Positions 772-19,027 of a DNA stretch of 19,476 nt are shown one piece after another. Position 1 is the stretch's first letter; every line of letters begins with the position of its first letter. The DNA comes from a virus. Made by a program: the position numbers and the translations under genes. The notes beneath the pieces were generated by a model that saw only the letters and a list, made by a program, of their open reading frames with translations, searched no databases and was not told the DNA's origin. Where the stretch lies: the UHGV virus genome UHGV-0127163. The stretch is one strand, 5' to 3'.

Positions 772-2058
772 TTACCCAGCTTTCTTATGGGGCATACATG
801 GGACACTTTCAGATAGTCTTTTGTTAAGGAGTTCTATCTGTTCGTGATTGTTGTCTTTCATCCATGCTCCGTAAACATTGAATACCATTTGTGCGTTTGT
901 GTGGCCTATCTGGCTTGCGATAAAACTAGGATTAGCTCCTGCGGCAAGTGACCAGCATGCATAAGTATGCCTGGATTGGTACGATTTTCTGTGTCTCAGA
1001 CCTGCGCGTTTTAAGATACTTGTCCATGACTCCCTGATGGAGTCAACCTTGTAGTGAGGTCCGGACAACTGCTGCTGTTTTGTTACCTGAGGACTAAAAA
1101 CAAAAGTGCATTTATGCACAGCAGTTCTCCCATATTCCCTCTGCTTCACCTCTACAGAATGTTGCTTTCCAAGCATGGTCATTTCCGCCTGGCTTTTAAG
1201 AGCATCAATAGCTGGTTGAACCAGATGAATTGTCCTTCCGGTGCCTGCATCGGTTTTTGGTGGAGTGAATTCGCCAAGTTTTGTATAATTTCTACGGATG
1301 GTTATAGTCCTTGCTTTAAGGTCTATATCTTCCCATGCCAGCGATACCAACTCCCCGTGACGAATACCCGTGTATACAGCGAGAATCCACAGGTTTTTTG
1401 TTTGTTGATGACGGCAAGCCTCAATAAAACGAATAAATTCGTCACGGGTGAGAGGATCTGGTTTTACCTTGGACTTTTTTAAGGGAGCCAGACCGTTAAA
1501 TGGGTTTCCTGAGGTATAACCATTATCTGTTGCAAATTGAAACATTCCAGCTATGGTTGTCATATAGTAGTTTACCGTGACCACTGAGCGCCCTTTTATG
1601 GAAGAAGTCTTTCCATTAGAAAGCTTTTGGTAACCGGTCAACAAATCTCTCCTTACGAAAAGTAAATCCTCTTTTGTTATGGATGAAACCAGTTTTTTTT
1701 CACCTAACATTGGTAACATGTTTTTAATTACTGACTGGTAACGGTTAAGTGCATTCGCACAAATCTCAATTTTCTTAAGGTCCAACCATTTTTCCGAAAG
1801 TGCCTTAACGGTTATCTCTCTTTTTCCCAGACCAAAGTGTTTCAGGTTAGGGGAATTAGGGAACTGCGCGGCATAGTCGAAACTCCCCATTCTGATTGCA
1901 AAACAAACGGAAGTGCGAAGTTCACCAGCGATCTTCCGGTTTTTGGCTGTGTCAGGAACACCGAGGTTTTCTCTGACACGTTTGCCATTATAGTGAAACC
2001 ATATACGGAGTGATCCTCCATGGTTTTCAACGCCTGTCGGGTATGATGCGTTACTCAT
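772..2058 (-). CDS. int: Tyrosine-type site-specific integrase (phage integrase family)
   Basis: 428 aa; C-terminal catalytic signature visible in translation (…GIRHGEL…, …SRHTYACW…, …VYGAWM…; R-H-R-Y pattern). ATG at 2058 preceded by GGAGG SD (rc of 2064-2068). Located next to the att junction and downstream of xis. Confidence 0.9.
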   Translation of the reverse strand: MSNASYPTGVENHGGSLRIWFHYNGKRVRENLGVPDTAKNRKIAGELRTSVCFAIRMGSFDYAAQFPNSPNLKHFGLGKREITVKALSEKWLDLKKIEICANALNRYQSVIKNMLPMLGEKKLVSSITKEDLLFVRRDLLTGYQKLSNGKTSSIKGRSVVTVNYYMTTIAGMFQFATDNGYTSGNPFNGLAPLKKSKVKPDPLTRDEFIRFIEACRHQQTKNLWILAVYTGIRHGELVSLAWEDIDLKARTITIRRNYTKLGEFTPPKTDAGTGRTIHLVQPAIDALKSQAEMTMLGKQHSVEVKQREYGRTAVHKCTFVFSPQVTKQQQLSGPHYKVDSIRESWTSILKRAGLRHRKSYQSRHTYACWSLAAGANPSFIASQIGHTNAQMVFNVYGAWMKDNNHEQIELLNKRLSESVPCMPHKKAG

Positions 2059-5292: not shown

Positions 5293-6167
5293 GCCACTAC
5301 CTCTTCGAATTTCAACTCCAATTGGTCACCCCAGATTTCACATGATTCGGAACACGAACCAGTATCAAACCGCTTGGCCAGCACCATCGCCTGATACAAA
5401 CTTCTGTAGTCGCTGTCGGCATACATTCTGGCAATCCTGTCAAGCGTCAGGTGACCACGGTACATAACGTCTTTACCTGTTCTGCGATGACCATCCCGGA
5501 CGTGTTTGCCTGTAACCAGTTCATTAAAAACCCGCATCAGACCAGGTTCGTCTTTACATGCGATCCCCAGCTTTTGCGTTGACTTTTTGATGCAGAAAAC
5601 ACAGTTCCCGAGGTGCTCCGGGATTTGCAAATCAAAAGGTTGTTTACGCCACCACCGGATAACATCCGACTTATCAAAATCTGACAGCTCGGCAAGATAC
5701 CGGACGCCCGGTTTCGGTTTCAGCCTACGGTGTTCGTCCGCACGAATACCCAGCCATGTGATGTAATTCCCTCGCCCAAAATGGTCATCGCAATATTTCG
5801 TGAAAGGGGTGAGTTTTAGCCTGTCAGTACAGAATGCGCCGCCGATGTATGGCGTACCGTACTTTTTAACCATGTCCATAAACGGTTTAAGCACCGGCAT
5901 TCGCGTCTGAATATCCTTTGGTTCCCATTCCGTATAACCATTTGGCTGCCCAAGCTCTGGATTTATATCGACCTGCAACACAGTTAGCGGTATGCCCCAG
6001 AACTTCACAACCTCCCGAATAAAGCGGTATGTCAGCGGATGTTCGCAACCGGTATCCATAAAGATGTAGCAGACGTTATTGCCAGCCTTTCTTTGTTCTT
6101 CCATCAGGTGAACAAGATATGCAGATGTTCTCCCGCCAGAAAAACTAACTACATGAGTTATGCACAT
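5289..6167 (-). CDS. Phosphoadenosine-phosphosulfate (PAPS) reductase-family protein (PP-loop ATP pyrophosphatase fold)
   Basis: 292 aa; N-terminal PP-loop-like motif VVSFSGGRTSAYL (SGGxxS-type), typical of the PAPS reductase/ATP-sulfurylase-like superfamily found in lambdoid early regions. Confidence 0.7.
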   Translation of the reverse strand: MCITHVVSFSGGRTSAYLVHLMEEQRKAGNNVCYIFMDTGCEHPLTYRFIREVVKFWGIPLTVLQVDINPELGQPNGYTEWEPKDIQTRMPVLKPFMDMVKKYGTPYIGGAFCTDRLKLTPFTKYCDDHFGRGNYITWLGIRADEHRRLKPKPGVRYLAELSDFDKSDVIRWWRKQPFDLQIPEHLGNCVFCIKKSTQKLGIACKDEPGLMRVFNELVTGKHVRDGHRRTGKDVMYRGHLTLDRIARMYADSDYRSLYQAMVLAKRFDTGSCSESCEIWGDQLELKFEEVVA

Positions 6168-6736: not shown

Positions 6737-6786
6737 ATTGCAGCAATCCAGCCCATTTGACATGGGATGATTGCTGCAATTTTTTT
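6737..6786 (+). terminator. Perfect 12-bp inverted repeat with nested 5-bp hairpin, followed on the + strand by T6 (intrinsic-terminator-like on + strand)
   Basis: ATTGCAGCAATC (6737-6748) / GATTGCTGCAAT (6769-6780); inner CCCAT-ttgac-ATGGG (6752-6766); TTTTTT 6781-6786. Sits between the RdgC-like and HD genes. Confidence 0.35.
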
Positions 6787-7702
6787 AAGTTGTTGGATTT
6801 TGGCTTTTATCTTCTTTGTAAGAAAGAAGGTCACACATCAAATTAACTACCTTGCTGAATTGGAAAAGGTCAGCGCCAGTCTGATGACGCCACTGGAATG
6901 CTTTATCATCTTCATCATTAAATGTCTGAGATTGAGTATTGATGCGCGAAAAATGGAAATTTTCGGTAAGAATGAAGGTCACACCGCAACCGGATAACTC
7001 CATTTTATCAGCAGTGAAACTACTACTAAGGCTATCGGCCAGTTCGCTTTGAATTGACTCATGCTCAGCTGAGTAGCGAATAATTTCCTTTTGATCTGCG
7101 TAGCGTGATAGCTGAATATAATTTCCGACAGTGAATCCTTCAAATGCATTGGCTGCACCATTGATGTAGTTATTCAGGCGTGTAGTCAGTCCATTCTTGA
7201 TATCACTGATGTTGATTGTTTCTGTTTTCACTGAACCGACAACCTTAATCAGCATTGCGCATACCATACCGGCTATTATTTTATTGGTTGTGTTGATTAC
7301 CAATAATTTCTCATCAGTGCTGTACAATGCAAGAATCAGAGTAGACTTAACAAATGCCTGTTTGCATAGATCTACTCGTACGTTATCAATAATGGCCAGT
7401 CGTTCGGCACGCTTTAATTTATTCCCGGACATATTTTCGATTGTTTGGATTCGAGAATTAGCTTCTTTCATGACGACATGTCGGGGAATTATTTTCTGAT
7501 CATGACGGATTACCATTGCGTACCCACCAGATATCGGAGTTACCAGTTCACCAGTGACAGGATTCTCTACAAAAGAGGACCGTGAAAATTCTGTTTCCCC
7601 GATTTCAGAATAAGGGAGTTCGAGAAGATGACCTTCAATAGCCTGTATACTAGGTAATGTTGCTCGGTACACAATTGCGTTACGAAATTTTGGTAATTTC
7701 AT
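6785..7702 (-). CDS. rdgC: RdgC-like recombination-associated protein
   Basis: From ATG 7702 (GAGGA SD) the product starts MKLPKFRNAIVYR…, matching the RdgC N-terminal pattern (M-x-x-F-K-N-x-x-VYR) and its ~305 aa length. The ORF-track N-terminal extension to 7903 overlaps the structured leader and is unlikely to be translated. Confidence 0.7.
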   Translation of the reverse strand: MKLPKFRNAIVYRATLPSIQAIEGHLLELPYSEIGETEFSRSSFVENPVTGELVTPISGGYAMVIRHDQKIIPRHVVMKEANSRIQTIENMSGNKLKRAERLAIIDNVRVDLCKQAFVKSTLILALYSTDEKLLVINTTNKIIAGMVCAMLIKVVGSVKTETINISDIKNGLTTRLNNYINGAANAFEGFTVGNYIQLSRYADQKEIIRYSAEHESIQSELADSLSSSFTADKMELSGCGVTFILTENFHFSRINTQSQTFNDEDDKAFQWRHQTGADLFQFSKVVNLMCDLLSYKEDKSQNPTT

Positions 7703-7740
7703 TCTATTTTCCTCTGCACAATGTATTAGTTTCTCCACAA

Positions 7741-7835
7741 AACAGAGAAGAACACCTGCGGTGGCAGCCGCCCGGATGGATTGGGTTATGAGCCCGTCGT
7801 CCGGTGATGCTCTTCTCTGTTTTGTAAAAAGAGCG
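7741..7835 (-). promoter_or_regulatory. Structured RNA element in early-left leader: boxA-like CGCTCTTTTTA followed by a 14-bp stem enclosing a ~53-nt multi-hairpin core
   Basis: On the - strand: CGCTCTTTTTA (7835-7825), then AACAGAGAAGAGCA (7821-7808) pairing with UGUUCUUCUCUGUU (7754-7741); 13 Watson-Crick pairs plus one G-U on the - strand (the same position is an A-C mismatch on the + strand). Immediately 5' of the RdgC SD. Confidence 0.4.
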
Positions 7836-8288
7836 GTACCAGCCGGAAGCAAGTGTACAAACTGGTACCGCCAAAGCAGTGGCTGTTGTGGTGGGGTTGT
7901 CACTCAGGCGTATGGTCAACCTGACAATCCGGTGTCCTCAACGGGGAAAGAGTAACCCCGCCATACTTACCGCCGCGCCATTTCGCGGATTACCACAACG
8001 CTGAGAGCACTTAGCCAGTTACGGCACCACACTTTGTCGCGGCTCCATAAATGCCCTCATCGTTGCACCCTGGTCTCTTCCCAAGCGTCAAACCGAATCG
8101 CCACGCTGGTTAGGCGTCTTATCAGCATCATCATTGACTTGCACATTCCGGCTACCTGGTTTGTTTGCCCGAGCAAGGAGTGGATTGTCCCCTTTAACGT
8201 CCCCAGACCGCTAACGACGCATGTGCCATACGCCGTGTTACAACCAACCTTTCGTTAACAACAGTCTGTTGTTTGTTCAGATAATGAT

Positions 8289-8600: not shown

Positions 8601-9686
8601 TTACAGACACTTGACTACTGTTGAAACATCAGATTCTAGTGCTTCAATTTGTGCTCTATTAGCTTGGGTCGCCATACCATAGATAGTGTAACTCTTATGC
8701 TGCAGCCTACTTAAAGGGCATCCCTCATGGTTTATTATTGCTGCAAGAGTATTACCATCTTTGACATTTTGAACTCTCTCGAAAGTAGCCACATTTGTGA
8801 ACAGATGAGGATGTGTATTTAACAGGTCATCCGTGATTCTTTTGATCTCTTCTGCATGTGATTTGAATGCTTTTGCTGCATCACTTTCATTAGTTCTTGA
8901 GCGGTTTTGTACGAAAAGGTGTAGTTCAGGTAGTTCGATAAGGTTTTGCTTTGCTTCTTTGTTGAAATCTAAGAACATTTCATCTTGTTCTGACTTGTCA
9001 ATAGACACTCCATAAATAAGTTTAACAAGGTTTTTTATTCCGCGAATTGATGCAGCATCGGCAGTGCAAGGGATAATTATTCTATTTGCCGCGACTACTC
9101 CCAATTCTGTGTAGCTGGCAAAACTTGGATTACAATCAATAAAAAATGTTTTTGCTCTGTCAGAAATGTTTTTATCGGCTTCAAAAGATGCTATTAGATC
9201 TACCAGCAAAGATCGGCTTTTCTTCCATGCTTCTTTTACTGGGGATGAGCCAATGTGAGATATTAAGCGTGAACAGATATCAAGATCGACATCACCAGGA
9301 AGAATATATAAGTTCTCTGGCATTTTTGCATTAACATCATGGGCTCGTACAAAGTAAGAAGATTCATTTCCTAAACGAGACAAAGGAGATTTGCTAAAAC
9401 GCTCCTTGATATAACCTGCGATTGTAACATTTCTGTCTCGCAATTTATTTAGATTTTCTTCCCCGGTACCATTGCCACCAAGAATAATTTCTGAAACGTT
9501 TGATTGAGGGCATGAGTCAATAACCACAACATCTTGATCCGGATGAGATATAGCAAACTCAACGGCAAGATTATATGTAAGAAAAGTTTTTCCTACACCA
9601 CCTTTGTTGTTCCATACTAAATATTTTGTATTGGTGGAAATCATATCTGCTACCCCATCTGTCGCTTCAGTACGTTCATTAATCAT
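8601..9686 (-). CDS. ParA/MinD-superfamily P-loop ATPase with ~100 aa C-terminal extension; orphan gene in the cI-to-OL interval
   Basis: Deviant Walker A NNKGGVGKT, Walker A'-like VVVIDSCPQ, Walker B-like FFIDCNPSF in translation. AGGA SD 7 nt before ATG 9686. Visibly AT-richer than flanking phage DNA; preceded by a 234 bp AT-rich spacer and followed by its own terminator. Confidence 0.75.
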   Translation of the reverse strand: MINERTEATDGVADMISTNTKYLVWNNKGGVGKTFLTYNLAVEFAISHPDQDVVVIDSCPQSNVSEIILGGNGTGEENLNKLRDRNVTIAGYIKERFSKSPLSRLGNESSYFVRAHDVNAKMPENLYILPGDVDLDICSRLISHIGSSPVKEAWKKSRSLLVDLIASFEADKNISDRAKTFFIDCNPSFASYTELGVVAANRIIIPCTADAASIRGIKNLVKLIYGVSIDKSEQDEMFLDFNKEAKQNLIELPELHLFVQNRSRTNESDAAKAFKSHAEEIKRITDDLLNTHPHLFTNVATFERVQNVKDGNTLAAIINHEGCPLSRLQHKSYTIYGMATQANRAQIEALESDVSTVVKCL

Positions 9687-11608: not shown

Positions 11609-11933
11609 ATAGTTTAACGGCAAATAACCGTTTGTCGCAACAGCTGGTGGTCAGCGTCGCTGAACACCTGTTGTTACGGCATGAATGCAGATTACCAAAT
11701 CACCTGGCTGTAAGTAACCACAGAGAACTTTACCTGACTGTGGGGGGCGAGTTGTGCAGGAACTTAACCGCTGGTTTCGTGACGGAAGAGGGCTTTATGT
11801 CCATGTTATTCGTTGGGAGCCAGAAACACAGCGCGTTATCTATCTTCGCAAAGACTACCCGCATGAGTGCTTTAGTCCTTTGTGGAAATTCAGGCGTGAT
11901 TTTGTTGAGTGTGAAGGACCACCAGCATATTGA
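11605..11933 (+). pseudogene. Small gene split between frame 1 (11605-~11748) and frame 3 (~11748-11933) at a G6 run: frameshift mutation, homopolymer sequencing error, or -1 frameshift site
   Basis: ATG 11605 is coupled to the upstream stop (ATGA). After the G6 run (11742-11747) only frame 3 reads as protein-like (RVVQELNRWFRDGRGLYVHVIRWEPETQRVIYLRKDYPHECFSPLWKFRRDFVECEGPPAY, stop 11931-11933); frame 1 turns Ser/Ala/Gly-rich and low-complexity. Frame 3 is closed upstream by TAA 11715-11717. Confidence 0.35.
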
Positions 11934-12753: not shown

Positions 12754-12974
12754 TCCGGAATATTTTCAAACGGTTTACCAATCAGACTTTCCGTTGTCCT
12801 CGTCCTGGTCAGTGGTACACCACGCCTGCAGGGCATGTTCTACGTGTCAGCCTGGTTGACCGTGAATGTCAGAAGGTGATTTGTGAACCGCTGGGCCGTA
12901 ATTACCGCATCAGTATGCCGCTTATAGCCTTTTGCTCCGGAAAAATGTTTAAGCGTCTGGGAGGTGTGGCGTGA
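12750..12974 (+). CDS. Hypothetical small phage protein (74 aa)
   Basis: ATGA start/stop overlap with rha; no domain recognised. Confidence 0.5.
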   Translation: MIRNIFKRFTNQTFRCPRPGQWYTTPAGHVLRVSLVDRECQKVICEPLGRNYRISMPLIAFCSGKMFKRLGGVA

Positions 12975-13270
12975 ACTGTTTTCAGTTTGTGTGCGGATGT
13001 GCTTTCGATAACCCGATTCAGCGCCTGATTATGTTGCGCGTTTTGATGTCGGGTTCTTCAGACGGTGAAGGCGAGAGAGTTATTGATCATCAGGTGCTTG
13101 CTGATTTCTGCTGTTGTTCTAAGCAAGCGATATTCAGGGAAACCCTGGCACTGGAAAGAGCTGGTTATCTTCATATCCGAAAAATTGCAACGCTTACTAT
13201 TGATGCAAAAGCCAGACTACAACCTGCGCGTGGCTACACAATTCTCATGCTGCGGAAGGAGGTTGTATGA
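12971..13270 (+). CDS. Hypothetical phage protein (99 aa), GTG start
   Basis: GTG 12971 after GGAGG SD, GTGA overlap with upstream stop; no domain recognised. Confidence 0.5.
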   Translation: MNCFQFVCGCAFDNPIQRLIMLRVLMSGSSDGEGERVIDHQVLADFCCCSKQAIFRETLALERAGYLHIRKIATLTIDAKARLQPARGYTILMLRKEVV

Positions 13271-14250
13271 GCCGTTACGCCCCCACACCGGAAGTTATGG
13301 CTATTGGTCAAATTAATATTTCCGGCAATGTTACACCTGCGACCTGGTGGAAATATATTCGACTACCCAGTGGGCGTCCGGATGCGACGGCTATCGCTCT
13401 GCTTTCAGAGATCGTTTACTGGTACCGCCCGACAGAGGTCAGGGATGAGCACACCGGAGCGTTGCTGGGATATCGCAAGCGTTTTCAGGGCGACAAACTG
13501 CAAAGAAGCTACCAGGCGTTTGCTGAGCAGTTTGGTTTCGGGAAAAGGGAAACCGCAGATGCGCTGAAGCGTCTGCGCGATGCAGGGTTTATTACTCTGG
13601 ATTTACGCACGGTGGAAATGCTCGATGGGGTGAAATGCAGCAATATTTTGTTTGTCGGGATCAACCCACAGGCAATTGCGGCCATCACCACACCTTCTTC
13701 TGTTTCGCCAGAAAGTAACAGCAATAATGCAATCAGCGATACAGCTATTACGTTAAAACGGAACACCCCCCGACGTCATAACGGAACAGGGGATACGCCG
13801 AATGTTGATACAAATACAGAGATTACTACAGAGATTACAACGGAGACTAAAAACACTATTGATGCATCCGCTGACGCGTCTGCGCCAGCGCGTTCTGCCC
13901 GACAGGAATATTCACCGGAATTTGAACAGGCCTGGCAGGAATATCCCAAACGTGCTGGTGGCAATTCAAAATCAGCAGCCTTCAAAGCCTGGAAAGCCCG
14001 TTTGAACGAGGGGGTAAACCCCGAAACCATGCTGGAAGGTGTGAAACGCTACGCGGGCTGGGTATCTGCGATGGGCAATAGCGGCACACAATTTGTGAAA
14101 CAGGCTGTCACGTTCTTTGGTCCGGATCGTCATTTCGAAGAATCCTGGGAAGTTCCTGCGGTATCTGCAGCCAGACGCGAGGACCCGTACTTCAAAGCCA
14201 GTTACGACAACGTGGACTACAGCCAGATCCCGACAGGATTCAGGGGGTGA
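13267..14250 (+). CDS. DnaT-like primosomal/replication protein
   Basis: GGAGG SD before ATG 13267. N-terminus (MSRYAPTPEVMAIG…) and C-terminal end (…YSQIPTGFRG) resemble E. coli DnaT (…SQIPPGFRG) as recalled; central Thr/Glu-rich repetitive linker. Confidence 0.6.
   Translation: MSRYAPTPEVMAIGQINISGNVTPATWWKYIRLPSGRPDATAIALLSEIVYWYRPTEVRDEHTGALLGYRKRFQGDKLQRSYQAFAEQFGFGKRETADALKRLRDAGFITLDLRTVEMLDGVKCSNILFVGINPQAIAAITTPSSVSPESNSNNAISDTAITLKRNTPRRHNGTGDTPNVDTNTEITTEITTETKNTIDASADASAPARSARQEYSPEFEQAWQEYPKRAGGNSKSAAFKAWKARLNEGVNPETMLEGVKRYAGWVSAMGNSGTQFVKQAVTFFGPDRHFEESWEVPAVSAARREDPYFKASYDNVDYSQIPTGFRG
13815..13850 (+). repeat. Three tandem 12-bp units inside the DnaT-like gene (iteron-like)
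   Basis: ACAGAGATTACT / ACAGAGATTACA / ACGGAGACTAAA; encodes …TEITTEITTETKNT…. Confidence 0.5.
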
Positions 14251-14252
14251 TC

Positions 14253-14741
14253 ATGAGTCTGATGAACGATGTACAGAAATTCATTGAAGCCCATCCGGGG
14301 TGTACTTCAGGTGACATTGCGGATGCTTTTGCTGGTTACTCACGACAGTGCGTTCTGCAGTCAGCAAGCAAGTTACGTCAGAGTGGCCGTGTGGCTCACT
14401 GTTGTGAAGGGAAAACACGCAGACATTTCCCACACCAGGCTGAGATATCGCAGGAGGAGAAACTGCAACCTGTTCTTGAAACCATACCTGTGCGCAATTT
14501 CTATGTCGGCACTAACGATCCCCGGGTGATTTTGTGCCTGACCCGCCAGGCGGAAGAACTGGAGTCCAGGGGCTTATACCGTCGTGCTGCAACCGTGTGG
14601 ATGGCGGCATTCCGTGAAAGCCACTCCCAGCCAGAACGAAACAATTTTCTGGCGCGTCGTGAGCGGTGCTTACGGAAAAGCAGAAAGCGCGCTGTAGCGG
14701 GTGATGAGTGGTATCTGTCAGGGAATTACGTGGGGGCTTAA
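14253..14741 (+). CDS. Hypothetical regulator; C-terminal motif resembles PerC/Pch-family activators (uncertain)
   Basis: GGGGG SD before ATG 14253 (GTG 14247 also possible). Motif …AEELESRGLYRRAATVWMAA… resembles the PerC-family signature as recalled; the N-terminal ~60 aa may be a winged helix. Not verified. Confidence 0.4.
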   Translation: MSLMNDVQKFIEAHPGCTSGDIADAFAGYSRQCVLQSASKLRQSGRVAHCCEGKTRRHFPHQAEISQEEKLQPVLETIPVRNFYVGTNDPRVILCLTRQAEELESRGLYRRAATVWMAAFRESHSQPERNNFLARRERCLRKSRKRAVAGDEWYLSGNYVGA

Positions 14742-15394
14742 TGAGTAATAAATATTGCCAGGCGCTGGTGGAACTACGGAACAAACCAGCCCATGAACTG
14801 AAGGAAGTGGGCGATCAGTGGCGCACGCCGGACAACATTTTCTGGGGAATTAACACCCTGTTTGGCCCGTTTGTTCTGGATCTGTTTACTGACGGTGATA
14901 ACGCCAAATGTGCCGCGTATTACACGGCGGAAGACAACGCGCTGGCACATGACTGGTCAGAACGTCTTGCGGAGCTTAAAGGTGCTGCCTTTGGTAATCC
15001 CCCGTACAGCCGCGCCAGTCAGCATGAGGGACAATACATCACCGGCATGCGTTACATCATGAAGCATGCCAGTGCCATGCGTGATAAAGGCGGGCGCTAT
15101 GTTTTCCTGATCAAAGCGGCCACCAGCGAAGTGTGGTGGCCGGAAGATGCAGATCATATTGCTTTTATTCGCGGGCGTATTGGTTTTGAACTGCCAGCCT
15201 GGTTTATCCCGAAAGACGAAAAGCAGGTGCCAACAGGTGCTTTCTTCGCTGGTGCTATTGCTGTTTTCGACAAGACCTGGAAGGGAGCGGCAATCAGCTA
15301 CATCGGGCGCGATGAACTTGAGGCATGTGGTGAGGCCTTTCTGGCGCAGGTTCGCCAGCAGGCGGAAAAACTGGTCAGGGAGATGGCGGCATGA
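14741..15394 (+). CDS. Phage DNA N6-adenine methyltransferase (Dam-like)
   Basis: Motifs DQWRTP near the N-terminus and NPPY (…FGNPPYSR…); ATG 14741 overlaps upstream stop (TAATG). Confidence 0.7.
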   Translation: MSNKYCQALVELRNKPAHELKEVGDQWRTPDNIFWGINTLFGPFVLDLFTDGDNAKCAAYYTAEDNALAHDWSERLAELKGAAFGNPPYSRASQHEGQYITGMRYIMKHASAMRDKGGRYVFLIKAATSEVWWPEDADHIAFIRGRIGFELPAWFIPKDEKQVPTGAFFAGAIAVFDKTWKGAAISYIGRDELEACGEAFLAQVRQQAEKLVREMAA

Positions 15395-15717
15395 CGACAT
15401 TAACTCAATGCCAGCAGCAGGTGCTGGATATGCTGATTTCTTATCAGAAAGAACGTGGCTTCCCGCCAACCAATCAGGAGGTGGCAACCATGCTGGGATA
15501 CCGTTCGGTGAATGCAGCGGTGGAGCATCTTCGAGCACTGGAGAAAAAAGGTGTCATCACGATAAAGCGTGGCGTGGCCCGGGGTATCACTCTTCATACC
15601 GCGGTGAAGGACGACGACAGCGAGGCGGTCGGGATTATCCGCGCCCTGCTTGCCGGTGAGGCAAACGCCAGGCTGCGTGCAGCCCACTGGTTACATGAGA
15701 GGGGCCTGAAAGTATGA
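15391..15717 (+). CDS. LexA N-terminal DNA-binding-domain paralog lacking the S24 peptidase domain
   Basis: MTTLTQCQQQVLDMLISYQKERGFPPTNQEVATMLGYRSVNAAVEHLRALEKKGVITI… closely parallels the E. coli LexA N-terminus ([58 protein letters not shown]…, recalled). Only 108 aa; the C-terminal ~40 aa has no Ser/Lys protease motifs. Confidence 0.75.
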   Translation: MTTLTQCQQQVLDMLISYQKERGFPPTNQEVATMLGYRSVNAAVEHLRALEKKGVITIKRGVARGITLHTAVKDDDSEAVGIIRALLAGEANARLRAAHWLHERGLKV

Positions 15718-16109
15718 AGCTAATACTGCCTTTTCCGCCCAGCGTGAACACGTACTGGCGACACCCTAACAAAGGGGCGTTTGCTGGTAAGAGCCTGATA
15801 AGCGCGGCGGGGCGAAAATTCCAGAGCGCGGCGTGTGCAGCAATAGTTGAGCAGTTACGTCGTCTGCCGAAACCAACGTCGGCACCTGCTTCAGTGGAGA
15901 TCGTGTTGTTTCCTCCGGATAACCGGATCCGCGATCTGGACAACTATAACAAGGCGCTGTTTGACGCCCTGACCCACGCGGGTGTGTGGGAAGACGACAG
16001 CCAGGTGAAAAGAATGCTGGTGGAGTGGGGACCGGTTATCCCGGAAGGGAAGGTCGAGATCACTATCAGTAAGTACGAAAAAGCGAGTTGCAAATTAGCA
16101 ACTCGGTAA
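15714..16109 (+). CDS. rusA: RusA-family Holliday junction resolvase
   Basis: …LPFPPSVNTYWRH… and …RDLDNYNKALFDALTHAGVWEDDSQV… match RusA conserved blocks; ATGA coupling to upstream gene. Confidence 0.8.
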   Translation: MKLILPFPPSVNTYWRHPNKGAFAGKSLISAAGRKFQSAACAAIVEQLRRLPKPTSAPASVEIVLFPPDNRIRDLDNYNKALFDALTHAGVWEDDSQVKRMLVEWGPVIPEGKVEITISKYEKASCKLATR

Positions 16110-16154: not shown

Positions 16155-16174
16155 TACTGTATTTATGAACAGTG
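16155..16174. promoter_or_regulatory. LexA box (SOS box) upstream of the antirepressor gene
   Basis: TACTGTATTTATGAACAGTG fits CTGT-N8-ACAG / TACTGTATATATATACAGTA; sits in the RusA-antirepressor intergenic region, overlapping plausible promoter hexamers, ~100 bp before ATG 16272. Confidence 0.6.
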
Positions 16175-16271: not shown

Positions 16272-17087
16272 ATGAATCAGTTGCTTGTAATTGATGGCGT
16301 TTCTGTGCGCCAGTACTTCGAATCTAACTACTGTCTTAACGACCTTCAGAAAGCTGCTCTTCTTGCCGCTGGTGAGAATCGCTCCTCCCGTTCGCTGGAA
16401 GTTCACGAGTTTATGCGTCGTCCTGAAACGAAGGCTCTTGTGGAATTATTGGAAGAAGAAACTACGGGAGATTCCCGTAGTATTCCTGTCATCACCATTC
16501 AGGGGCGCAATGGTGGGACGTATGTCTGTAAAGAGCTGGTCTATGCATATGCAATGTGGATCAGCCCGGCATTCAGCTTAAAAGTGATACGTACTTTTGA
16601 TGCGCTTCATAATTCATCACCAGAAGAAACCACATCCGACAAAATTAAATCCGGGGTCATTCTGCTTGAATCAGCAGCAAAGACTCTAAATCTGTCAAAC
16701 TCCTCGAAACTTGGTGCATACCAGAAATTATCAAAGGTAGCTGGTCTTCCTGAACTTATGCCGATCTATGCCATTGATGCACCTGCTGATGCGCCAGATG
16801 GTTCAAGCCGCCCTACGCTGTCGCTGAGTGCACTGCTGAAGCAGTATGGTATCCGCCTGACGGCTAATCAGGCATATCACCAGATGGTGAAACTGGGGAT
16901 CGTCGAGCAGCGCGAACGATACAGCCGTACCGCGATTAACAACATCAAAAAATTCTGGTCGCTGACAGCGAAAGGCTGCATGTTCGGCAAGAACATCACC
17001 AGTCCTGCAAATCCGCGCGAGACGCAGCCGCATTTCTTCGAATCCCGATTCCCTGAGCTGTTAAAGCTGCTCGATACCGTTCACTGA
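16272..17087 (+). CDS. KilA-N domain protein, putative antirepressor
   Basis: N-terminal KilA-N/APSES-like block (…VRQYFESNYCLNDLQKAA…GTYVCKELVYAYAMWISPAF…); GGAGAA SD before ATG 16272; LexA box upstream. Confidence 0.6.
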   Translation: MNQLLVIDGVSVRQYFESNYCLNDLQKAALLAAGENRSSRSLEVHEFMRRPETKALVELLEEETTGDSRSIPVITIQGRNGGTYVCKELVYAYAMWISPAFSLKVIRTFDALHNSSPEETTSDKIKSGVILLESAAKTLNLSNSSKLGAYQKLSKVAGLPELMPIYAIDAPADAPDGSSRPTLSLSALLKQYGIRLTANQAYHQMVKLGIVEQRERYSRTAINNIKKFWSLTAKGCMFGKNITSPANPRETQPHFFESRFPELLKLLDTVH

Positions 17088-17102: not shown

Positions 17103-17618
17103 ATGAGAATTACACCACCCCATCTGCAGCCAGTTTTATCCAGGGTTAAACGTTTTGTTGAACGAATGCCGGAAGGCGCAACACTGACCCAGATATCACA
17201 GAAAGTGCAGGCGTACAGTCTACTGAATAAAAGGGATAAGGAGATACTCATTGGCATTATCCGCGACAGTGGACTTCTGGTCGTTGCGAATGATGGAAGA
17301 ACTACAACGTTACATCATCCTAAATTTGGACATCAGGCAGTAAATAGTGAAATACCAGTAAAAACAGAGGAACCCGTTGTGATTAAAAAGACCGTTACTC
17401 CGGATGAATTACGCAGGCATGCTGAGGAGCTGATCAGGGCTGCGGAAGAAGCAGAGAAGAAATTTAATGATCGTGCGGAAATTAAAAAGCAACTGGATCC
17501 TCTGAAACTGGAAATCCTCCAGGCGTATGGAATGGCAAGTCGTAAATTTGATGAGTTTGTTGATGCTATGGCGGATATGGGGAAAGCGGTACAGAAACTG
17601 AAACAGATTGTGCTGTGA
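17103..17618 (+). CDS. Hypothetical phage protein (171 aa)
   Basis: GGAGG SD before ATG 17103; no domain recognised. Confidence 0.55.
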   Translation: MRITPPHLQPVLSRVKRFVERMPEGATLTQISQKVQAYSLLNKRDKEILIGIIRDSGLLVVANDGRTTTLHHPKFGHQAVNSEIPVKTEEPVVIKKTVTPDELRRHAEELIRAAEEAEKKFNDRAEIKKQLDPLKLEILQAYGMASRKFDEFVDAMADMGKAVQKLKQIVL

Positions 17619-18617: not shown

Positions 18618-18634
18618 TTTTGTGGAGAAAGTTG

Positions 18635-19027
18635 ATGCGTGATATTCAGATGGTTCTCGAACGCTGGGGGGCATGGGCGGCAAGTGGTAACGCCGGGGTG
18701 GACTATTCTCCGATAGCTGCTGGATTTAAAGGCCTTTTACCATCCACCGCTAAACCTCGCCCGGCCTGCAGCGATGATGACGGCCTTATCATCGAAAACT
18801 GCCTTACGCGCCTGAAGAAGAAAAAACCGGACGAGTATTCGCTGCTGGTAGCTCATTATCTGCTGCGCATATCAAAAAGGCAGATTGCCAGAACAAGAAA
18901 GAAGAGCGAAAAGGCAATACGAATTGAGATGCAGATTGCTGAAGGATTTATTGACGGATGTCTGTCGATGCTGGGTGTAAGGCTGGAGATGGACGACTGG
19001 CTGCCCAAAAAAGTAAAAAATGATTAG
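18635..19027 (+). CDS. Q: Late-gene antiterminator Q-like protein
   Basis: 130 aa from ATG 18635 (GGAGA SD); N-terminus MRDIQMVLERWGAWAA… resembles Q proteins of the phage-82/933W group as recalled; immediately followed by a promoter-proximal terminator (tR' arrangement). Confidence 0.6.
   Translation: MRDIQMVLERWGAWAASGNAGVDYSPIAAGFKGLLPSTAKPRPACSDDDGLIIENCLTRLKKKKPDEYSLLVAHYLLRISKRQIARTRKKSEKAIRIEMQIAEGFIDGCLSMLGVRLEMDDWLPKKVKND

Follow-up and report, generated by a model that had tools for sequence, protein, structure and literature searches.

A stand-alone LexA-type DNA-binding protein with a conserved helical tail in the early region of lambda-like prophages

What does a lambda-like prophage do with the DNA-binding domain of LexA and no protease domain? 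The question is raised by a short gene in the virus genome UHGV-0127163, analyzed here as a single stretch of 19,476 nt (below, the window), which comprises the early region of such a prophage. The gene, for which we use our own label lexN, is the open reading frame (ORF) at 15391-15717 on the plus strand (ATG 15391 to TGA 15717), encoding a stand-alone protein of 108 aa. An earlier note, made from the sequence alone, described this product as the LexA DNA-binding domain without the autocleavage domain, and suggested that it could occupy LexA boxes, including one at 16155-16174, that RecA could not remove it, and that it might set the induction threshold of an adjacent antirepressor. Hence it has to be established how close to LexA the protein is, how it could bind DNA without the LexA C-terminal domain, and whether it has anything to do with the neighboring box.

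The description of the domain is confirmed. The product matches the Pfam profile LexA_DNA_bind (PF01726) end to end (residues 1-65 on profile positions 1-65 of 65, E-value 2.9e-19, 69 bits against the cut-off of 23.7), and there is no Pfam match to Peptidase_S24 (PF00717) in the protein, which stops at residue 108. The close resemblance to LexA holds on alignment as well: BLASTP yields 43% identity over 91 aa with E. coli LexA (E-value 1e-21; the LexA sequence used agrees with the PDB sequences), and the PDB chains 1lea, 1jhh and 3jso match with E-values about 1e-15. The AlphaFold model of the monomer, based on an alignment of 18 sequences, has a predicted local distance difference test (pLDDT) score of 84.8, and Foldseek superposes the modeled head on the LexA-DNA complex 3jso at 1.0 Å (68 columns, 50% identity). 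In the model, residues 1-68 (15391-15594, pLDDT about 89) form a winged helix-turn-helix (HTH), with predicted helices 6-22, 28-35 and 40-52 and strands 56-58 and 66-68. The score against the NCBIfam LexA equivalog TIGR00498 is 70.7 bits, covering only model positions 1-91 of 203 and falling below the cut-off of 110.95, and thus the lexN product is a LexA-derived DNA-binding protein and not LexA proper.

The catalytic dyad Ser119/Lys156 of LexA is absent from the protein. The absence of an Ala-Gly cleavage context, also claimed previously, requires a correction: the dipeptide does exist (Ala88-Gly89 in LLAGEA), and BLASTP pairs it with the LexA cleavage site VAA84-G85EP. As a cleavage site, including cleavage in trans, it was ruled out, since it is not conserved among the relatives and lies inside a confidently predicted helix.

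The recognition helix SVNAAVEHLRALEK (residues 39-52, 15505-15546) was assigned by the alignments. In E. coli LexA the bases are contacted by S39, N41, A42, E44 and E45 (PMC3091678); four of the five (S39, N41, A42, E45) are identical in lexN, where the set reads S-N-A-V-E. The residues that read the CTGT half-site are therefore mostly retained, the exception being E44; P40 of the same helix is changed as well, and we return to both below. Codon variation was studied in a sample of 49 nucleotide alleles from 82 loci. Among the polymorphic codons, 33 vary only silently and 11 change the amino acid, the corresponding numbers for the DNA-binding domain being 23 and 3, and the variation in recognition-helix codons 39, 44 and 45 is silent only. 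This pattern is clear evidence of purifying selection acting on lexN. Together, the retained contact residues and the silent variation favor recognition of SOS boxes without proving it.

The remaining forty or so C-terminal residues, which had been passed over as nothing, turn out to be a conserved and confidently predicted hairpin. A flexible linker (residues 69-73, 15595-15609), the length of which varies among relatives (pLDDT below 50 at residues 71-75), is followed by a family-specific helical hairpin (residues 74-102, 15610-15696, pLDDT about 90), with helices predicted at 74-88 and 93-102. When 1.8 billion representative proteins were searched exhaustively, relatives of 40-52% identity were found to share both the length (105-135 aa) and the tail, and to retain hydrophobic positions 79, 82, 83, 86, 87, 97, 100 and 101, A97 and L101 being invariant. 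Taken alone, the tail has no meaningful match in Pfam or PDB (only a NIL-domain at E-value 0.038), and in the Foldseek comparison with 3jso it superposes on nothing. It is the second conserved element of the family, and its invariant residues argue for a genuine function. LexA dimerizes via its C-terminal domain, and it had been doubted whether the truncated protein binds DNA as a dimer at all. The hairpin offers a plausible answer: it is probably a dimerization module, and, as a hairpin could not bury so many apolar positions alone, the simplest reading of the model is that two of them would pair as a four-helix bundle.

The family is by no means a new find: it has long been annotated and is extremely common in prophages. 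Of 5426 complete E. coli genomes, 2233 carry the gene; single genomes hold as many as four copies, and the total comes to 2855 copies of intact length. The gene is also found in about 50 deposited phages at a level of at least 95% identity. It is 95-100% identical to genes of SfV (orf42), SfII, SfIV, mEp460, and cdtI, Stx2c and Stx2a_WGPS2 phages. The PHROG 362 profile covers the protein with the tail included (residues 1-108 on profile positions 1-106 of 106, E-value 4e-59), and the database labels are "LexA family transcriptional regulator", "LexA DNA binding domain protein" and, for PHROG 362, "transcriptional repressor". The place of lexN immediately before rusA, in the interval from the replication genes to Q, fits this known stand-alone family (SfV Orf42 / mEp460), which is listed in a survey of Stx phages as a pham without assigned function (PMC8136144). 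Stand-alone LexA-head proteins are predicted in many unrelated phages. We found no functional study of the lambdoid lexN family in the literature, subscription journals being outside our coverage.

The best candidate operator in the window is the box TACTGTATTTATGAACAGTG at 16155-16174, in the intergenic region between rusA and a KilA-N domain gene, 440 bp downstream of lexN. The motif CTGT-N8-ACAG occurs in the window twice, with 0.23 occurrences expected. With a position weight matrix built from SOS boxes whose own median is 20.5 bits, the box scores 21.1 bits, the best of 200 shuffles 19.5 bits, and the next-best site of the window 9.2 bits. The SOS box proposed at this position is therefore real, having a bona fide appearance and being the sole one in the 19.5 kb window. 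The other CTGT-N8-ACAG (11708-11723), within the Rha/Ash gene, has a spacer rich in G+C and a score of 7.6 bits, and was rejected as a chance occurrence. Exact copies of TACTGTATTTATGAACAGTG number 98 in IMG/VR.

The organization of the locus bears on the timing of expression. The ATG of lexN is preceded at 8 nt by a Shine-Dalgarno sequence GGGAG (15378-15382, plus strand, read from the sequence). The stop codon of the upstream dam-type N6-adenine methyltransferase gene (14708-15394, plus strand; PF05869, E-value 6e-45) overlaps the lexN start as ATGA, and the lexN stop overlaps in the same way the start of the Holliday-junction resolvase gene rusA (15714-16109, plus strand; PF05866). The nin-like region that contains lexN ends with the Q antiterminator gene (18620-19027, plus strand; PF06530, E-value 3e-52), and phage mEp390 and a Klebsiella phage have their homologues in the same slot after the replication genes and before Q, with dinI as a neighbor in the Klebsiella phage. 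Neither lexN nor the KilA-N gene has a convincing promoter in a sigma-70 scan, TTGATA-17-TAAGTT and TTACCT-18-TATGAA being weak candidates by eye only. Given the ATGA overlaps, the lack of an upstream promoter-like site and the conserved slot, lexN is probably, by analogy with the lambda nin region, a delayed-early lytic gene and not one expressed in the lysogen. With its synthesis most likely confined to the period after derepression, the protein could hardly set the induction threshold of a lysogen, as had been suggested, and it more likely acts once the switch is thrown.

Against this background a RecA-insensitive SOS-box binder is a reasonable reading of lexN. The fuller version that we put forward as the most likely, and hold only tentatively, is that lexN encodes a tail-dimerized, RecA-insensitive SOS-box repressor that replaces LexA during lytic growth, the protease/dimerization domain of LexA having been exchanged for a small helical hairpin. 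Judging from its position and overlaps, lexN would share the transcript of the replication and nin genes, made from the early rightward promoter, and the protein would therefore appear only after infection or induction. Two molecules would pair via the C-terminal hairpin, and the pair, carrying conserved LexA recognition residues, would bind CTGT-N8-ACAG operators. Activated RecA should be unable to remove it, as the architecture lacks the S24 domain and any usable cleavage site. The net effect would be to close again the LexA-controlled promoters in lytic growth, after the host LexA has been destroyed. In the phage itself the sole such promoter would be that of the SOS-boxed KilA-N gene; in the host, the targets would be the SOS regulon together with the functions that LexA gates in co-resident prophages and colicin plasmids.

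The proposed design may be compared with several known systems. Host LexA shares the fold and most of the DNA-reading residues, and differs in having the S24 domain, Ser119/Lys156 and the Ala-Gly site, none of which is present in functional form in lexN, whose dimerizer must be different and much smaller. By analogy, lexN would behave functionally like the non-cleavable (Ind-) LexA mutants. The natural LexA 1-84 fragment is a weak binder, and its new C-terminus leads to its clearance by ClpXP, while the C-terminus of lexN is ...RGLKV. Artificial fusions of LexA's DNA-binding domain (pSR658/SU101) come closest to the proposed design: with the domain alone the sulA-operator reporter (SU101) gives about 1000-1500 Miller units, and with a self-associating fusion 16 (PMC503385). 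As the domain represses once fused to any dimerizer, a dimerizing tail would suffice in lexN, which looks like a natural version of these constructs insofar as its tail dimerizes. GIL01 gp7, DinI and phage 434 Hex are, as proposed for lexN, mobile-element proteins that blunt the RecA/LexA pathway; however, they act on LexA or RecA themselves, while the lexN protein would replace LexA on DNA.

If the protein is indeed a stable SOS-box dimer, many E. coli and Shigella strains, including carriers of Stx2c phages, some Stx2a phages and serotype-converting Sf phages, would possess a damage-insensitive substitute for LexA switched on at prophage induction. The strongest form of this idea, in which lexN of about 40% of E. 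coli strains silences the whole SOS regulon anew in trans at prophage lytic entry, seems doubtful to us. If true, SOS mutagenesis and colicins would be shut off, as would the antirepressors of rival prophages that LexA gates; this would be a previously unrecognized, "replace the repressor" form of anti-SOS activity and inter-prophage competition. Even short of this, a stable SOS-box dimer could shape the duration of SOS in induced cells, the choice of co-resident prophages, colicins and toxins that fire, and the extent of SOS mutagenesis during antibiotic-triggered induction. It would also be a natural case of the "DNA-binding domain plus minimal dimerizer" design of LexA-based two-hybrid tools. 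Should lexN have a private operator instead, it would be one more small phage regulator and a routine finding.

A number of observations weigh against the repressor reading. Two residues of the recognition helix differ from those of LexA (E44 to V, P40 to V), and a Citrobacter relative (P0086, 66% identical) has NTIAGH where lexN has NAAVEH. Judging from these differences, the recognition specificity seems to drift within the lexN family, unlike that of host LexA. The tail is more tolerant of amino acid changes than the head, with eight silent-only and six changing codons.

The genomic context is no more favorable. Among 80 near-identical lexN loci from IMG/VR (L009-L088), rusA lies directly 3' of lexN in essentially all that extend far enough, but the box with the window-type KilA-N allele is found in only 18. 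In the remaining loci a KilA-N gene of 67-70% identity abuts rusA, with no gap and no box. In E. coli the window-type arrangement is seen in only 186 of 2223 lexN-carrying genomes, about 8%, so most lexN copies have no SOS box nearby. The homologue in mEp390 (47% identical) lies between a replication gene and rusA-DUF968-Q, with no KilA-N gene there.

The converse comparison gives the same result. Among the 69 IMG/VR loci with the exact box and sufficient upstream sequence, 63 carry lexN. In four of the six others (L095, L100, L135, L151) the dam stop overlaps the rusA start at about 440 bp upstream of the box, with the KilA-N gene and the box both intact; the last two have an interruption upstream of the box, which in L119 is a 370-aa ORF separating a rusA fragment from the box. 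Being cleanly present or absent as a cassette, lexN is dispensable. The high co-occurrence of lexN and the box was considered as a sign of functional coupling and rejected, as physical linkage to one rusA allele accounts for it. Given the 18 loci, the 186 genomes, mEp390 and the lexN-less box loci, the SOS box is not tied to lexN: the module of the box and the KilA-N gene works without lexN, and lexN mostly occurs without the module. The link to the neighboring box and gene on which the earlier note had relied is thereby lost.

The last point against the repressor reading is a precedent. The closest characterized analogue of lexN is gp6 of the Bacillus thuringiensis tectivirus GIL01, a 66-aa protein that binds GaCACAnnTGTGaC and activates the late promoter P3 (Fornelos et al. 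2018, PMC6182141), which demonstrates that a truncated LexA homologue can acquire a new site and activate transcription. The two proteins are alike in being made early in the lytic program (in the case of lexN, probably so) and in being each about 44% identical to the LexA domain of the own host. They come from different types of viruses and different hosts, and gp6 has no tail. BLASTP gives no alignment between them, and the identity in the MAFFT alignment (35%) is below that of lexN and host LexA, so they probably represent independent captures of the LexA head. Compared with gp6 among truncated phage LexA homologues, lexN seems new in having the added conserved tail and LexA-like recognition residues.

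Accordingly, the alternative that survives best is that lexN is a specialist of the gp6 kind, which has drifted to a phage-specific non-SOS operator and activates or represses a phage promoter, late or accessory. We regard this as possible, though on the unlikely side. The only characterized truncated phage LexA homologue that we found acts in this way; V40 and V44 depart from LexA, relatives vary at positions 42-45, and lexN is retained in phages with no SOS box within the ±5 kb examined. However, the recognition residues read S-K-T-H-R in gp6, S-N-A-E-E in LexA and S-N-A-V-E in lexN, so that gp6, keeping one of the five, has a re-specified helix (K38) and a GaCACAnnTGTGaC site overlapping a -35 element, while lexN, which keeps N41, A42 and E45, altered in gp6, does not follow this pattern, although no search of the window was aimed at the gp6 motif. 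Moreover, lexN sits within an overlapping operon with no adjoining intergenic operator, late transcription in lambdoid phages is already under the control of Q, and no alternative conserved palindrome was identified.

Considerably less probable is a weak or non-regulatory role, in which lexN would be a monomeric half-site binder, a decaying remnant of a captured lexA, or a protein whose tail docks a partner while the head is a tether. It would be in line with the poor repression by the LexA DNA-binding domain alone, the absence of a recognizable dimerization motif in the tail and the dispensability of the gene. Such a role is hard to reconcile with the clear purifying selection, the full-length architecture retained down to 40% identity, the invariant tail residues and the abundance of intact-length copies in E. 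coli.

The least probable is the proposal of the earlier note that the protein, made in the lysogen, sits on 16155-16174 and on host SOS boxes, setting the threshold of the adjacent antirepressor or dampening the SOS response: the location of the box between rusA and the KilA-N gene and the 63 box loci with lexN speak for it, but the association is explained by the shared rusA allele, the module accompanies few lexN copies and persists where lexN is deleted, the gene overlaps its early lytic neighbors without a promoter-like site of its own, and neither the need for an antirepressor nor the identity of the KilA-N protein as one is secure.

The latter two points deserve some detail. The cI-type repressor of the phage (9921-10682, minus strand) has HTH and Peptidase_S24 domains and, given the S24 domain, is probably RecA-cleavable; induction should then need no antirepressor. 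The KilA-N domain gene 3' of the box (16272-17087, plus strand; PF04383, E-value 1.3e-15) is assigned to PHROG 129 'transcriptional regulator', its product being only a putative antirepressor. Its ORF opens at GTG 16260, and ATG 16272 is preceded by GGAG. The box before this gene resembles the LexA-controlled antirepressor modules 186 Tum, N15 AntC and Gifsy GfoA/GftA, in which an SOS box precedes a small regulatory gene of a temperate phage and the phage repressor is non-cleavable (PMC3121763), unlike the S24-carrying cI here; lexN belongs to no described module of this type.

At the extreme end of rusA there is an inverted repeat, CGAGTTGC-aaatta-GCAACTCG (16084-16105), which is terminator-like on the minus strand only. 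As it has no T-run on the plus strand and a terminator score on the minus strand only, it is unlikely to halt read-through from rusA into the KilA-N gene.

The window as a whole starts with the integrase gene (772-2058, minus strand), followed by the RdgC-like and ParA-like genes, cI, the cII-like and Rha/Ash genes, an O-like replication gene, a PerC-family gene, dam and lexN, and then by rusA, a 150-bp gap with the SOS box, the KilA-N gene, an uncharacterized ORF, a DUF968/HNH gene and Q. The RdgC-like and ParA-like ATPase genes (6785-7903 and 8601-9686, minus strand) lie within the early-left operon of the prophage. ORFs 12971-13270 and 13267-14250 are consecutive, overlap, and match the replication-initiator PHROGs phrog_4617 and phrog_270; they may be a split or two-part O-like gene. 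The nin-like region also contains a homologue of PerC-family transcriptional activators (14247-14741); PerC/Pch relatives are regulators of virulence loci in pathogenic E. coli. The 171-aa ORF between the KilA-N gene and DUF968 (17103-17618) is present in only three of the 80 related loci and looks like a small mosaic insertion.

Further SOS-related elements were observed in the related loci. In phage phiSTEC1575-Stx2k (L001) a near-perfect SOS box AATACTGTTTTTACATACAGTATT (5773-5797) lies within the gene of a cI-type repressor (5311-6003, minus strand), in the linker that joins the HTH domain (residues 7-64) to the S24 domain (residues 104-218). The box recurs in about 25 of the 80 related loci, an SOS operator within a repressor coding sequence being unexpected. 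In locus L010 an SOS-box-like sequence TACTGTAAAAATAAACAGTG (8918-8939) overlaps the opening codons of a DNA methyltransferase gene (350 aa) that starts at 8912 and lies downstream of Q; with minor variants allowed, it occurs in about one in three of the 80 related loci, outside the window.

In the Klebsiella phage ST846-OXA48phi9.1 (L090, positions 1-969), dinI is located two genes upstream of a LexA-head gene of 40% identity that occupies the slot before Q. The dinI product is a RecA modulator, and this arrangement hints at a cluster of SOS-modulating genes. Finally, several proteins of our library, including P0131, P0133, P0148, P0151 and P0152, have two LexA_DNA_bind stretches per chain and may be single-chain pseudo-dimers, another route around the LexA C-terminal domain.

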